Shown here: positions 1,816-28,439 of the stretch, piece after piece | Layout of the letters: each line of letters begins with the position of its first letter | How positions within the stretch are numbered: position 1 is the stretch's first letter | From: a virus | UHGV virus genome: UHGV-0213393 | Strand: one strand, 5' to 3' | Length of the DNA stretch: 64,000 nt | Notes under the pieces: generated by a model | Told to the model about the DNA's origin: nothing | The model's input: only the letters and a program-made list of their open reading frames with translations | Database searches by the model: none | Made by a program: the position numbers and the translations under genes

Positions 1816-2505
1816 AAGGTAAGGGAAAGCTCCGGCACCGTGCAAATACATGCCCGGCAGGTTTAGTGCGTAAAGTGGTTTCAGCGAGAGCATTTTACGG
1901 AGTAAACGACAGTGACTTGAGCCACGGAAGGTCTTTTTAAGGTGTTCATTGATGATGATCTGGCAGTGAGTATGTTAAGTGGGCCAGGCTGCATCGGGTC
2001 ATCATCAGTGAACATCCTCAACGTTAAGGAGGCGCAGAGTTGGGTTTTCCTCTTATTTTGCTGACTCTGAGTCTCCTTAACGTTGCGGTAATGCACCTAT
2101 GCGGATGTGGCCTTGCATTGTGTTTTGAAAGAATGGGGGTAAGGCCGGGGATATCCCCAGGGGGAGGCACCCCCGCTGCAACGAACAGCCATAGACGGCA
2201 GTCGAGTGATGAAAACGTGAAAAGACTTTAAACCTCGTTACGGCTGGCGTGGCAAACGCGACAACCGGGATAGGACGGTGACGGGCGGAGAGAGAGCCGC
2301 TTCAAGATAAAAGCCGACTATGGATTCCTTTCTGCGGGCCTTTGAAAGTGAATCTTGCTCAGGCAGTCGGCTTTTATGTTGATACGTAGCGATAACCGCG
2401 ACAGGCGCGGCGGTAAGTATGGCGGGGTTATTCCTTCCCCGTTGAGGACACCGAGTTGCCAGGTTGACCATACGCCTAAGTGGCAATACCGCGAGTGGGA
2501 TATTT

Positions 2506-2530
2506 GCCCACCTTCGGGTGGGTGTTTTTT
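2506..2530 (+). terminator. rho-independent terminator
   Basis: gcccacc-ttcg-ggtgggtg followed by tttttt; closes an ORF-poor structured region. Confidence 0.7.
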
Positions 2531-2991
2531 CAGTGTTTTCGTCATGGTTAGCGACTTTGCGGCGGTTTAGAAACTGACCATTAAAGTAAATGCAAACGAT
2601 GATCTGATGATGGTAGCGGCCTAAGAAGCCTGACGCCACGGGGTATGAGTCGTCCCCCGTCAAAAAATCGACCGCAGAGTGTCCCCGTCTGTGTATTAGG
2701 GAACGGGGAGGCATAACAGGCAAGGGCGCTGGTGTGATTAACCAGATGAATGAGAAGGGTCAGGTCTTTCTGGTCAGCGCCCTTACCTGTTACGTCCTTC
2801 CCGCGTAACAGCCATTGGTTAATGGCTTTCTGGAATAATGTCTTGTAACGGGTATATCCCGTCATGCTGAAGGCGCTAATCACGCTGGAAGCCAGGGTTA
2901 TGCATCCCCTGTTACCGAATTGCAGCCAGGGCGCGGTGCGCCGAAAAGCATACGGAGGTGGAAGCCCTCGCCGGAGACGTACCCGGCAAGT

Positions 2992-3066
2992 GATGGTGTA
3001 GCTCAGCGGTAGAGCAGTTGGCTGTTAACCAACTGGTCGGTGGTTCGAATCCACCCACCATCGCCA
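2992..3066 (+). tRNA. tRNA-Asn (anticodon GTT)
   Basis: Hand-folded cloverleaf: acceptor gatggtg/caccatc, anticodon loop ctGTTaa, T-arm ggtggttcgaatccacc, 3' CCA encoded. Confidence 0.85.
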
Positions 3067-3071
3067 ATTTA

Positions 3072-3158
3072 GGGGAGTTAGTCCGTAGAGGTAGCGGTGT
3101 AGACTGTAAATCTACTGTCATTGCGACTCGGGTGGTTCGACTCCATCACTCCCCACCA
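3072..3158 (+). tRNA. tRNA-Tyr (anticodon GTA), long variable arm
   Basis: acceptor ggggagt/actcccc, anticodon loop ctGTAaa, extra arm, T-loop ggttcgactcc, CCA encoded; D-arm not fully canonical by eye. Confidence 0.65.
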
Positions 3159-3162
3159 AATT

Positions 3163-3238
3163 GCCGGTTTAGCTCAGTTGGTAGAGCAGTCGCTTTGTAA
3201 GCGAATGGTCAGCGGTTCGATCCCGTTAACCGGCACCA
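3163..3238 (+). tRNA. tRNA-Thr (anticodon TGT)
   Basis: acceptor gccggtt/aaccggc, D-arm gctcagttggtagagc, anticodon loop ttTGTaa, T-loop ggttcgatcc, CCA encoded. Confidence 0.85.
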
Positions 3239-3479
3239 ACACAACAGGTAAGAGCATTTGTAGAGTTCGACTCTCTACCGTGGGCTTTTTCCCGCGATGC
3301 GAGCCATAAATGCTCTTTCCGTTGTGGTGAATGCGCGTTGCTGGCGCGCAAGTCCGCCCTATGGCAACGAGGCGGCGTAGTAAATATCGATGCCTCAGTC
3401 ATCAAGCGCACTGACCGGCCTTATGGGCTATGAAAAAAAGAGGCGCAGTCGGAGATCAGTACCGACCACCACAATCACT

Positions 3480-3566
3480 GGAGAGTAGGGAGCATGGTGC
3501 TCAAGCGGTCTTGAAAACCGTCCCGTCGCGCAAGCGATGATGGTTCGATTCCATTACTCTCCGCCA
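3480..3566 (+). tRNA. tRNA-Ser (anticodon TGA), long variable arm
   Basis: acceptor ggagagt/actctcc, anticodon loop ctTGAaa, long extra arm, T-loop ggttcgattcc, CCA encoded. Confidence 0.65.
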
Positions 3567-3995
3567 TCGCAACGTTAAGAGTATTTGGCTAATTAAGCGA
3601 ATGCCGGAAGCAGAACCGGATCACCAAATGCGTACAGGCGTCATCGCCGCCCAGTCAGCCAAATGCTCTTACCATTGCGGTGAATGCGGCTAAGCGCACG
3701 CGGAACAGTTAAAACAGTAAAGGTGGTCTTTTTACTGGCGTAACGAGAATCCATAAGTGATCCGGCGTTAATTGTTAACTGGTTAACGTCACCGGGAGGC
3801 ACCCGGCACCGCAACCTAACAGCAATGGCGTTTTGTCTTAAAAGGTGGCTGCAAGTGATGGATTTTTGGGCGTTTGCCGATAAAAACCCGGAGTGGACAT
3901 TATTGTTTCTGCTGGTGGTTGCATACGGGGTAGAGCAAGCGGCAAAAGCCTTACGCGGTTCTGGCAAAAAGCGTAAGCGTAATTAACAGTAATCT

Positions 3996-4071
3996 GGCCC
4001 TTTAGCTCAGTGGTTAGAGCGGGCGACTCATAATCGCACGGTCACCGGTTCAAGTCCGGTAGGGGCCACCA
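3996..4071 (+). tRNA. tRNA with CAT anticodon (Met, or Ile if lysidine-modified)
   Basis: acceptor ggccctt/aggggcc, D-arm gctcagtggttagagc, anticodon loop ctCATaa, T-loop ggttcaagtcc, CCA encoded. Confidence 0.8.
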
Positions 4072-4525
4072 CATTTGGTTGTAACACGGCGTATGGCACA
4101 TGCGTCGTTAGCGGTCTGGTGTAGCTGTTAGGTGCCTTACTAACACTGCATGGGCACATCAGGTAGCCGGAATGTGCAAGTCACCGTTGGTAGGATAGCG
4201 GACTCAGGGACTCACCATCCTGGCGATTCGGTGTGACAGCCGGAATAGCACGGCGTACAACAGGAAAAGGTGTTTAATTAATACGAGCGCCTTCTCCGTT
4301 GTGGTAATTGCGGCTATGCGCTCGTGACGAAGCCATTTTCATTCACTACGTTCTGATAAGTGTCGTCGCCGGGCGTGGCTAACCTGGCAGGTGGAGGCAC
4401 CACCGCCACAACTCCTTTCAATTCATCATATAGCCGCTCAGGCTGTAACCCTTAATTAATACGAAGTTACGACGTCACTACCGGTTCAGCCGGGGGATAG
4501 TCGCGCGTGTAAAAAAGGAGACGTT

Positions 4526-5101
4526 ATGTTAACGGCGAACGATAACGCGTATTCAGAAGATGATCTCGTTTTGAGTGACTTTATAGGGCGACGAGAATGC
4601 TGGACGCAAAAGCGCGAGGAGCTTTATGCAGCGTTAGTTCGTAAAGGCGTCAACATCGAAACCGCACAGAACGGTGATATGACAGTGGTAAGTGTTGGAC
4701 TGCACGGCGTAAGTGTGTCAGCAATCAATCACGAGCCGTACATTGCGTTATCCGAGTCGATGGTAAGGTTAGTTAAGTTCCTGAAGTACACAGAAGCGAA
4801 TAACGTGCTCATCGCCAAAAAGAACATCCCGTTCTCATCGGCCTTTTACTGGATGATGAAGGGGCTTGATGCCCGGCGAACATCATGGCCTAAAGGGAGC
4901 TATATATCGATGCTCCGTGGCAGTGTTGGTAGCAAAGAAAAGCTCGTCGAATTCCTGCCGGAAGAGGCATTCGATATTGTTGAAGGTTGTGATGTGATGG
5001 TTATGCCTCGCCTGGTAATGATGAATGGGGATTTACAGGCGCAGACAGACTGGTTTGCAACTGGTGTTGATATTATCGCTACTGACTGGGAGGTTTTTTG
5101 A
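4526..5101 (+). CDS. hypothetical protein
   Basis: 191-aa ORF with RBS aaggag; stop overlaps next start (ATGA). Confidence 0.55.
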   Translation: MLTANDNAYSEDDLVLSDFIGRRECWTQKREELYAALVRKGVNIETAQNGDMTVVSVGLHGVSVSAINHEPYIALSESMVRLVKFLKYTEANNVLIAKKNIPFSSAFYWMMKGLDARRTSWPKGSYISMLRGSVGSKEKLVEFLPEEAFDIVEGCDVMVMPRLVMMNGDLQAQTDWFATGVDIIATDWEVF

Positions 5102-28126: not shown

Positions 28127-28232
28127 GAAAACACACAGTTGCGCCCTGGCATTATCGTGGGGTATATTTCTACGGCACCTTAGAAAAACGGGTGCCGGGA
28201 TTGGAACCCCGGATAATGTCAAAGGCGACACA

Positions 28233-28255
28233 GACGCCGAACGCGTCTTTTTTTG
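28233..28255 (+). terminator. rho-independent terminator
   Basis: gacgc-cgaac-gcgtc followed by ttttttt. Confidence 0.7.
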
Positions 28256-28439
28256 TGTCATGCCATCGCACAGCCATACTTAGCGTTTAGCTCAGAGATC
28301 AATGGTAGTGCTGGCTGGGCTGCCGAAAGGCAGGCCGGTTCCCTTTGACGCCGGTAGTTCCAACCCAGTCAGTGCTACCGCCATTGAGATTGGAACCTCA
28401 CGCGGTAGCTCCTTAACTTAGTCAAAGGAGGCTGCCAAT

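Follow-up and report, generated by a model that had tools for sequence, protein, structure and literature searches.

Small stable RNAs that are transcribed together with phage tRNAs are known from the tRNA cluster of T4, and in rrn operons, T7 and lambda RNase III stems form irregular two-turn helices between the RNAs of one transcript. T4-type phages carry PeSL cassettes (promoter-early stem-loops), in which short conserved stem-loop sequences surround a variable cargo and serve as joints for modular shuffling. From prophages two small RNAs (sRNAs) are of interest: STnc100 is a detected RNA encoded 75 nt 3′ of stx2 in Shiga toxin (Stx) phages (PMC12370729), and both STnc100 and PasD are prophage sRNAs with targets from RNA interaction by ligation and sequencing (RIL-seq) (bioRxiv 10.64898/2026.05.13.724894). 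Transfer-messenger RNA (tmRNA) occurs in two-piece, permuted form in beta- and alphaproteobacteria and marine phages, and permuted phage tmRNAs are already known (PMC9004378). The mycobacteriophage DS6A encodes an RNA that is little more than the tRNA-like domain (TLD) of tmRNA, and a molecule similar to it inhibits tmRNA whether it can be charged or not (PMC4131195). Here we analysed a stretch of 64,000 nt of the virus genome UHGV-0213393 (the window), whose region 2500-4500 contains five tRNA genes and long spacers. This region is probably one polycistronic island of non-coding RNAs and tRNAs on the plus strand, which is built from a repeated two-part module (a long leader hairpin and a tRNA-framed unit) and would be processed in the style of tRNAs.

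P1 and the lambdoid phages belong to the best-studied genomes, and about 2 kb beside their tRNA genes are annotated as empty. This stretch of about 2 kb is an ordered array of conserved RNA structures common to at least five phage families. Known already are the tRNAs (from P1) and the STnc100 and PasD sRNAs. The hairpin family (a/a′, after its 5′ and 3′ arm), the tRNA-like frame of the units, the closed tRNA-like domain in one of the hairpins and the enterophage tag module that opens the island were not found in Rfam 15 (at the gathering score), by ARAGORN, in the annotation of the Prokaryotic Genome Annotation Pipeline (PGAP) or in the searchable literature. For tag peptides and 'tmRNA-like' or 'ssrA-like' phage RNAs, no description of the enterophage module was present in the literature searched, outside of which most subscription journals lie, and an earlier description is possible.

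Leader hairpins and tRNA-framed units

The original prediction, which was made from the letters of the sequence, had noticed a module that recurs between and behind the tRNAs. The module is real, although the positions given for it (3289, 3658 and 4275) were 3-19 nt off; its copies are located at 3308-3335, 3661-3688 and 4285-4312, the second and the third being 89% and 71% identical to the first. A 25-nt version of the motif with at most 3 mismatches occurs twice in the window, compared to 0.00 expected occurrences (100 shuffles). Each of the recurring copies forms the 3′ arm (a′) of a long inverted repeat; the 5′ arm (a) is found 15-70 nt before it, and the motif as originally read (...ccgttgtggtgaatgcg) is the junction of a leader hairpin and a tRNA-framed unit.

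Four such hairpins are present on the plus strand. Hairpin h0 (2704-2803; a 2712-2732, a′ 2775-2794, outer pairs 2704-2711/2795-2803) is the fourth copy, which lies 5′ of the tRNAs; after it, at 2788-2810, comes a closing stem that is 'empty' (TGTTACG...CGTAACA). The type I hairpin m1 (3240-3327; a 3240-3259, a′ 3308-3327) folds with z = -3.3 and hairpin m2 (3565-3682; a 3565-3589, a′ 3658-3682) with z = -4.5. Hairpin m3 (4257-4304; a 4257-4272, a′ 4288-4304) is a short-loop form, and the same form was found in phage D6 and in the related locus L032. The hairpins start 1-3 nt 3′ of the CCA of tRNA-Thr and tRNA-Ser.

Around 130 related loci were searched for each arm independently. This resulted in 40 distinct hairpins, and 37 arm pairs were aligned, with h0, m2 and m3 among the rows of the alignment. 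In these 37 distinct copies the 20-bp stem is paired in 92.3% of the cells and compensatory changes occur in 11 of the 20 stem pairs, a result that was matched by none of 500 shuffles, whereas slid registers reached at most 59% pairing. One stem pair outside the search pattern is found as GC, CG, UG and UA. The outer stem CACAAC-A-GG / CC-GTTGTG is conserved as sequence, and the centre of the stem varies freely with compensation (AAGAGCA/TGCTCTT, AAGGGTA/TACCCTT, AATGGCA/TGCCATT, AAGCTGC/GCAGCTT). A U-G wobble is present in 27 of the 37 copies, and the arms lie 134 and 127 times on the strand of the tag module versus 13 and 6 times on the other strand (about 10:1). Both the wobbles and the strand bias argue for an RNA structure that is read from the strand of the tRNAs. 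Within 1.5 kb of the tag module 166 tRNAs were predicted in 140 loci, and every one of them is encoded on the strand of the module.

The apical inserts vary between 12 and 170 nt. At the place of m1, D6 and many P1-like plasmids have an insert with an anticodon-arm-like hairpin plus a GGTTCGAATCC T-arm, and P7 has a third type. On the minus strand of locus L075 (1208-1417) a 170-nt insert in an a/a′ hairpin contains CTGACGAG...CGAAAC and looks hammerhead-like by eye; no Rfam match was obtained for it at the gathering score.

The arms also mark the borders of homology between phages. BLAST homology to D6 and P7 stops at 3258/3259, the end of the a arm of m1. Exactly 3240-3332 (93 nt) is 97.8% identical to a P22-like (lambdoid) E. 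coli prophage, and the interior of m2 (3591-3654) is 100% identical to the short unit following m1 in a lambdoid prophage (BLAST). Since the breakpoint lies at the end of an a arm and the prophage matches are this exact, the arms appear to be the joints of the mosaic, which would account for the swapping of tRNA cargo between phages. PeSLs differ in that they flank protein genes and carry promoters, whereas the a/a′ arms sit inside an RNA operon and are under selection for pairing. With the RNase III stems of rrn, T7 and lambda the a/a′ hairpins share the long irregular helix of about two turns between functional RNAs, yet the sequence of their outer stem is conserved across phage families, which is atypical for RNase III sites.

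The tail of the a′ arm, TGYGGTG, together with the following 'AAT GCG...' opens a second structure, the tRNA-framed unit, whose 7-bp closing stem is TGYGGTG...CACCRCA-A. A perfect or one-wobble 7-bp partner 50-270 nt downstream was detected for 75 of 192 unique a′ contexts in the TGTGGTG register, compared to 1-23 in eleven other registers. The pairs of this stem covary (TGCGGTG/CACCGCA in 27, TGTGGTG/CACCACA in 22 and TGTGCTG/CAGCACA in 7 cases, and also TGTGATG/CATCACA). In the examples printed the partner stands directly after a hairpin, and in most of them an A comes next.

Three units were found in the window, all on the plus strand. Unit A (3323-3474) has the closing stem TGTGGTG 3323-3329 / CACCACA 3467-3473, followed by A, and contains AAT, a 5′ hairpin at 3333-3350 and a 3′ hairpin GTCGG...CCGAC at 3448-3466. 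Unit B (3676-3814; TGCGGTG 3676-3682 / CACCGCA 3807-3813; AAT) folds with z = -2.7 and has the 3′ hairpin CCGGG-AGGCA-CCCGG at 3792-3806. Unit C (4299-4412; TTGTGGT 4299-4305 / GCCACAA 4405-4411) ends in the 3′ hairpin GGTGG-AGGCA-CCACC at 4390-4404, with an AGGCA loop as in STnc100. In the minimum-free-energy folds of all three units the ends are paired. The units have the outline of a tRNA: a 7-bp stem is placed on an adjacent 5-bp hairpin and a second hairpin begins 3 nt after the 5′ strand, corresponding to the acceptor, T and D positions. Thus the spacers are tandem modules of hairpin and tRNA-framed unit, and true tRNAs fill equivalent slots in the series.

The small-RNA option of the original prediction is supported by these modules, which are conserved, covarying and specific to the tRNA strand, and of which one matches an experimentally known sRNA family. 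Unit B aligned to the Rfam model RF02076 (STnc100) at 3676-3813 with 40.8 bits (E 6.6e-08), below the gathering score of 47, and with this model P7 scores 43.0 and D6 39.6 bits. The alignment covers model positions 31-147 with the closing stem, AAU, 5′ hairpin and 3′ hairpin CCGGG-AGGCA-CCCGG, whereas the core differs and positions 1-30 and 148-206 are unmatched. By alignment, folds and register test, the consensus frame of STnc100 (7-bp closing stem, AAU, 5′ hairpin and an abutting 3′ hairpin with AGGCA loop) was found in the locus, and units A and C have this frame in common with unit B. As judged from its sequence, unit B is therefore probably a member or a near relative of the STnc100/PasD sRNA family. 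The genomic setting is also the same, as the passages searched of both papers place these sRNAs in the late leaders and tRNA regions of phages, close to terB/tciA and Q (bioRxiv 10.64898/2026.05.13.724894; PMC12370729). The same passages do not contain the upstream a/a′ hairpin or a reading of the frame as tRNA-like. The units would give these prophage sRNAs, which are encoded beside Shiga toxin genes, a structural definition and a testable tRNA-style route of biogenesis.

In some T1-like contigs a tRNA-shaped RNA of about 165 nt follows the a′ arm (L176 at ~1690-1812, likewise L180, L199, L160, L139 and L149). It consists of TGTGGTG-AA, a true D-arm (GCTC AATGGC GAGC), an 85-nt core, a T-arm (GCCGG TTCGATT CCGGC) and CGCCACA-A-CC(A/C). 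ARAGORN did not call it, and in the three contigs scanned (L176, L139, L149) no Rfam match reached the gathering score.

A tmRNA-like tag module and a closed tRNA-like domain

Upstream of the tRNAs lies a feature that the original prediction had missed, as it had missed that the modules are hairpins, that the units have closing stems and that there is a small open reading frame (ORF). It is a tmRNA-like mRNA-like module (2535-2711, plus strand; GTTTTCGTCA...GCGACTTTGCGG...TTTAGAAAC...TAAAT) with the resume codon GCA at 2592. The tag ORF at 2592-2621 encodes ANDDLMMVAA and ends with TAA at 2622-2624 (TAAAT GCA AAC GAT GAT CTG ATG ATG GTA GCG GCC TAA). It has the properties of a tmRNA tag frame, namely an alanine resume codon, no in-frame start, a hydrophobic C-terminus and a stop codon, with a UAG 8 codons upstream. 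The resume codon is preceded by U(-5) and A(-4), in agreement with U85 and A86 of E. coli tmRNA. Downstream follow a hairpin at 2637-2661 and an H-type pseudoknot, in which CGCAGA 2673-2678 pairs with TCTGTG 2688-2693 and CCCCG 2683-2687 with CGGGG 2704-2708. The stems of hairpin and pseudoknot covary between lineages. RNAalifold on a MAFFT alignment of the module recovered part of the structure, and an equivalent of PK1 was not established by this approach.

To compare the tag between phages, 61 distinct sequences were collected by an upstream pattern which excludes the tag. The frame of 10 codons plus TAA is kept in all 61. The tags (e.g., ANDDVVLMAA, ANDEQFLAVA, ANEEMYLAVA, ANDNTFLAVA and ANDSEVLMAA) end in Ala-Ala or Val-Ala and differ by synonymous and conservative changes, with variation at third positions and NUN codons at positions 5-8.

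The module is widespread. It was found in 254 phage records (P1-like, lambdoid, Drexlerviridae, Schitoviridae, Ackermannviridae and T5-like), T1-like, N4-like and Vi1-like phages included, and among 5426 complete E. coli genomes 670 (about 1 in 8) contain it. No feature or only a hypothetical protein is annotated beneath the module. In P1 it is located at record position ~68,939, where the annotation has no more than a 'dicF-like region' beside it. ARAGORN, PGAP and Rfam at the gathering score all leave the module uncalled, and neither the window nor any enterophage locus gave a tmRNA with ARAGORN. In E-value mode the Rfam model tmRNA_permuted matched 2482-2624 with 25.1 bits (E 0.004; gathering score 47). 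Five other phages gave 25-33.5 bits, and the range outside the window is 21.8-33.5 bits; all of these tmRNA scores of about 22-34 bits are below the gathering scores of 47-84.

The tag module is flanked by two arms: upstream of it stands an a′ arm at -64/-83, and downstream nearly all loci have an a arm at +119 to +130 from the tag. The T-arm that the original prediction had described as a tRNA 3′-half-like fragment without acceptor strand was confirmed as a hairpin (gtagag-ttcgact-ctctac) at 3260-3278, and it belongs to a conserved three-way junction inside m1, with 98% identity in lambdoid prophages. The parts of m1 are the a arm, this T-arm with the loop TTCGACT, a closed acceptor-like hairpin at 3279-3296, the conserved ATGCGAGCCAT at 3297-3307 and the a′ arm, so that the junction is formed by the T-arm, another hairpin with covariation and the conserved GATGCGAG strand. 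Across seven homologues 95.7% of the cells of m1 pair. The T-arm pairs in 100% of the cells (2 of 5 pairs covary) and has an invariant TTCGACT loop, and the third helix pairs in 100% of the cells with covariation in 5 of 6 pairs. The modelled topology of m1 is that of the tRNA-like domain of tmRNA plus its P2 helix with no free CCA end, and such an RNA would be unable to be charged. No chargeable end was found in m1, as a loop of 5-8 nt closes the acceptor-like helix, which carries no CCA and does not conserve the G-U pair (G3:U70).

Of 5426 complete E. coli genomes, 76 contain the m1 element. Its position was examined in three chromosomal copies and two Enterobacter phages, and in all of these it is flanked by the genes of the antiterminator Q and the holin; in phage MII_001 an m1-type hairpin stands directly 5′ of the tag module. 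Such a T-arm is uncommon near the tag module and in the hairpins: most a/a′ hairpins and most carriers of the tag module do not have one. A scan for orphan T-arms plus NCCA within 1.5 kb of the tag in 140 loci gave only the closed m1 type and units with U1-A72/U3-A70, and no G3:U70. In a T1-like phage a sigma-70-like promoter sequence (TTGACA, 17 nt, TAGATT) is placed to start an RNA at the tag module.

By several independent features the tag module is thus tmRNA-derived, and it lacks the chargeable tRNA-like domain by which a tmRNA is defined. It shares with two-piece tmRNAs the resume GCA after UAAAU, the 10-residue tag AN(D/E)x...(A/V)A with UAA, the hairpin after the stop and the pseudoknot; m1 resembles them in its modelled topology, with a T-arm, an acceptor helix, a strand analogous to the D-arm and a long helix that may correspond to P2. 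In contrast to tmRNA, the phage modules have no free acceptor end, CCA or G3:U70, and their tRNA-like and mRNA-like parts are separate and often not both present. Compared by architecture alone, the DS6A RNA keeps its tRNA-like termini, whereas in m1 a loop closes the acceptor helix and both termini are part of the 20-bp stem. By analogy, the DS6A RNA, which may titrate SmpB, could be a precedent for the m1-type domain (PMC4131195).

Three other explanations for these modules were rejected. Pairing with host tmRNA was dismissed as the RNAduplex energies against E. coli ssrA were no better than those of shuffles, the sole notable shared word being GCAAACGA, and the same comparison ruled out a recent capture of host ssrA. 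A small peptide from an out-of-frame AUG (MQTMI...) varies in length from 5 to 9 residues and has no Shine-Dalgarno sequence.

Genuine permuted two-piece tmRNAs were seen in environmental viral contigs among L009-L128 (e.g., L017, L040 and L013; ARAGORN 'tmRNA*', tags ANDDSFTPMALAA and ANDDFAPVDYALAA). In marine viral contigs such tmRNAs share the resume context with the tag module and have proper GGGGAUG/CAUCUCC-A-CCA acceptors.

Proposed processing and competing explanations

The structures with their conservation, covariation and strand specificity, the context, the mosaic breakpoints and the family resemblance were established in the analysis, and we infer from them a single transcription unit, its processing enzymes and any link to trans-translation. 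In the proposed mechanism the first part of each module would be the leader hairpin of about 20 bp (outer CACAAC-A-GG / CC-GUUGUG conserved, covarying centre, variable apical insert). The second part would be the tRNA-framed unit, a small RNA of the STnc100/PasD type, which starts inside the 3′ arm of the hairpin (UGYGGUG...CACCRCA, then A) and carries a D-position hairpin after AAU and a T-position hairpin abutting the 3′ strand. The closing stem stacked on the 3′ hairpin would form a 12-bp minihelix, the minimal shape for RNase P and the enzymes of 3′ tRNA maturation, and from this shape we propose that the host tRNA-processing machinery cuts tRNAs and small RNAs out of one transcript. The leader hairpins may act as insulating or processing stems, possibly as substrates of RNase III; a role of the modules as processing signals, as raised in the original prediction, is plausible. 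In the DNA they may provide the homologous joints for cargo swapping between phages. Transcription would start from the Q-modified late promoter in lambdoid phages and, in P1 and P7, from the ban promoter, which is under the control of C1; in the D6-like element studied here it would enter from upstream, since no promoter was predicted and a terminator-like hairpin precedes the island. In shape, which alone was tested, the 20-bp stem (92% paired) corresponds to an RNase III substrate and the 7-bp stem beside a 5-bp hairpin to an RNase P substrate. As the tag module opens the island and m1 has a closed tRNA-like domain, the data suggest that trans-translation is the system from which the architecture of the island descends or with which it interferes.

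Several results weigh against this proposal. Sigma-70 promoter prediction gave none in 2100-4700, where the only terminator-like site stands before the island. Unit B remains below the STnc100 threshold, units A and C gave no Rfam match at E up to 10, and shuffled sequences fold as well as unit A (z = -0.5). The loops of the 3′ hairpins are AGGCA or 9 nt long and are no T-loops, and no CCA is encoded, so that recognition of the units by RNase P is not assured. Moreover, the outer 4 bp of the leader hairpin and the closing stem of the unit compete for identical nucleotides, and a purely structural processing role does not account for the strong sequence conservation of the outer stem.

It is quite improbable that the inverted repeats are DNA-level recombination or transposition sites (attC-like, similar to repetitive extragenic palindromes (REP) or miniature inverted-repeat transposable elements (MITE), or ends of HUH hairpins) which capture cargo and have no role as RNA. 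Variable inserts of 12-170 nt, breakpoints at the arms and, as read from the sequence, a resemblance of the arms to RYYYAAC/GTTRRRY at 6 of 7 positions would fit such sites. However, the elements are strand-specific and always co-oriented with the tRNAs, the wobble pairs would become A-C mismatches on the opposite strand, the arm overlaps the covarying closing stem of an RNA, and a consistent link to an integrase, RAYT or TnpA is missing across the P1-like, lambdoid, T1-like and N4-like phages. An integron attC site in particular was rejected because at best 6 of 7 core positions match, m2 has ATTGCGG in place of the GTT core, and the stretches retrieved around the element contain no annotated integrase gene. 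The degenerate tRNAs of the original prediction correspond to a reading of the spacers as functionless, decaying tRNA pseudogenes with recombination scars, which we consider very improbable. The tRNA-like elements themselves are there: T-arms and an anticodon-arm-like hairpin are frequent in the inserts, the a arm GGTAAGAGCA resembles the 3′ half of a D-arm by its letters, and the locus is highly mosaic. Against decay as the main explanation stand helices which are maintained through compensatory changes, modules kept across phage families with otherwise unrelated genomes, and near-identical copies in 76 (m1) and 670 (tag module) E. coli genomes. For boxA/nut-like antitermination sites, which would shield the long untranslated transcript from Rho, one could point to an untranslated operon of about 2 kb as a Rho target and to TGCTCTT(T) in the a′ arm, the first 7-8 nt of the rrn boxA (consensus YGCTCTTTA). 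As such a site is single-stranded and conserved in sequence, whereas here the motif is buried in a 20-bp stem and varies with compensation (TGCCCTT, TGCCATT, GCAGCTT), we rejected it; the compensated variation argues for selection on the pairing and not on the sequence, a partner of the boxB or boxC type was not identified, and the explanation is extremely improbable.

The readings closest to the proposed processing island involve tmRNA. According to one of them, which partly overlaps with it and which we find doubtful, the a/a′ helix is the counterpart of P2, m1 titrates SmpB, and the upstream module is a tag template that manipulates or supplements host trans-translation. The kept U(-5) and A(-4) in UAAAU-GCA, shared with genuine permuted phage tmRNAs, the constant 10-codon frame with its hydrophobic NUN codons and Ala-Ala/Val-Ala end, the hairpin beside the stop codon with a covarying pseudoknot downstream, and weak, repeated Rfam tmRNA matches in six phage lineages argue for it. 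So do the order of m1 (P2 strand, T-arm, acceptor hairpin, GAUGCGAG, P2 strand), which matches a permuted tmRNA precursor, the m1 type directly next to the tag module in MII_001, the a′ and a arms (the latter at ~+120) that bracket the module, and the precedent of DS6A (PMC4131195). Against this stand the closed acceptor-like hairpin without CCA or conserved G3:U70, which leaves no chargeable tRNA-like domain, the negative ARAGORN results throughout and the missing complementarity to host ssrA. In addition, most tag-module phages have no T-arm nearby, a T1-like RNA would start at the tag module, and the inserts of most a/a′ hairpins are unrelated to a tRNA-like domain. A broader form, which we put forward tentatively as a possibility, is that enterobacterial phages (P1, P7, D6, lambdoid and P22-like prophages, T1-like, N4-like and Vi1-like phages) carry an unrecognised descendant of tmRNA, split into free-standing modules (tag template and closed tRNA-like domain) that act on host trans-translation. 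The tag template (AN[D/E]x....AA-stop) would then be under selection at the peptide level with no chargeable tRNA-like domain, and the a/a′ helices, like the tRNA-framed units, would be remnants of that same scaffold. The modules might supply an alternative tag template, or act as decoys of SmpB and the ribosome during infection. This raises the question why a tag-coding relative of tmRNA persists without a chargeable tRNA-like domain.

Genomic setting and neighbouring features

The five tRNAs that had been folded by hand are exactly those called by ARAGORN, all on the plus strand: tRNA-Asn(gtt) at 2992-3066, tRNA-Tyr(gta) at 3072-3158, tRNA-Thr(tgt) at 3163-3238, the class II tRNA-Ser(tga) at 3480-3566 and a tRNA with anticodon CAT at 3996-4071, which is annotated as Ile2 (ileX-like) in P1 and P7. 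The first three were also detected by Rfam. RF00005 matched four of the tRNAs with 41.6-75.5 bits (gathering score 29), and tRNA-Ser matched the tRNA-Sec model with 45.7 bits. None of the spacer modules was called a tRNA by ARAGORN or Rfam. At the gathering score Rfam found nothing in the spacers, and the structure match that it does give there lies below this score (unit B, STnc100). The modules are common to P1-like, lambdoid and other phage families, in line with the conservation in relatives that the original prediction had proposed as a check. Phages of the rV5 type (e.g., V5, FFH2 and Murica) have a tRNA-Ser/Tyr/Arg cluster with which the region of tRNA-Tyr and tRNA-Ser (query 164-750) shares 87-88% identity, and tRNA-Tyr is absent at the corresponding place in D6, P7 and P1.

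The window is a P1/P7/D6-like phage-plasmid with the C4 and isrK RNAs (Rfam) of the P1 immunity region at ~28.2 kb. The best phage match of 2900-4520 is D6 (90% identity across 66% of the query, BLAST), and end-to-end matches with up to 97.5% identity are plasmids of about 90 kb from E. coli, E. marmotae and Salmonella. The gene order is the same as in D6, with an ORF at the pmgS position followed by the RNA island, a 191-amino-acid ORF and lpa. In P1 and P7 the elements lie 3′ of the C1-controlled ban promoter, and in lambdoid phages between Q and the holin gene. Directly 3′ of the Q gene of lambdoid phages, at the position of the short pR′ transcript, isrJ was seen in L003 (1868-1941, 62.6 bits) and L007 (3039-3112, 54.8 bits).

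Immediately 5′ of the tag module lies the terminator-like hairpin with a T-run (2505-2524, plus strand), the counterpart of the end of the 'dicF-like region' annotated in P1, as seen in the alignment to P7 and D6. This P1 region (NC_005856, 68791-68892) corresponds to 2435-2530 of the window, where Rfam gave no match to DicF at E up to 10.

The spacers had been described as about 1 kb of non-coding sequence. About 160 nt of this are a probable small ORF. The ORF (3825-3986, plus strand, 53 amino acids) stands at the tciC position and probably encodes a small membrane protein with one hydrophobic helix and a basic tail. It is 70.6% identical to an unannotated stretch of D6 3′ of tciB (tblastn), and a Pfam search gave no match; tciA and tciB themselves are absent from the window. 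The spacer 3′ of trnI (4072-4255, plus strand, 184 nt, behind tRNA-Ile2) is conserved with 84-86% identity in P7 and other P1-like loci (BLAST), and it is flanked by a 12-nt direct repeat (TAACACGGCGTA at 4082, TAGCACGGCGTA at 4246). An exact direct repeat of 13 nt, TTAATTAATACGA, is found at 4274-4286 in the loop of m3 and at 4452-4464, 60 nt before the next ORF, and may be a promoter-like or protein-binding element. In the immunity region isrK (61.3 bits) and the C4 antisense RNA (77.1 bits) lie at 28175-28385 on the plus strand, both above the Rfam gathering score, in an arrangement of the P1 immI type.

Directly 3′ of the RNA island, the 191-amino-acid ORF (4526-5101, plus strand) contains a domain like that of Thoeris anti-defence 2 (Tad2; PF11195, E 4.4e-10). 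Because the island adjoins this anti-defence gene, counter-defence or control of ribosome rescue are candidate roles for it. The D6 counterpart of this Tad2-like ORF is annotated as a hypothetical protein.

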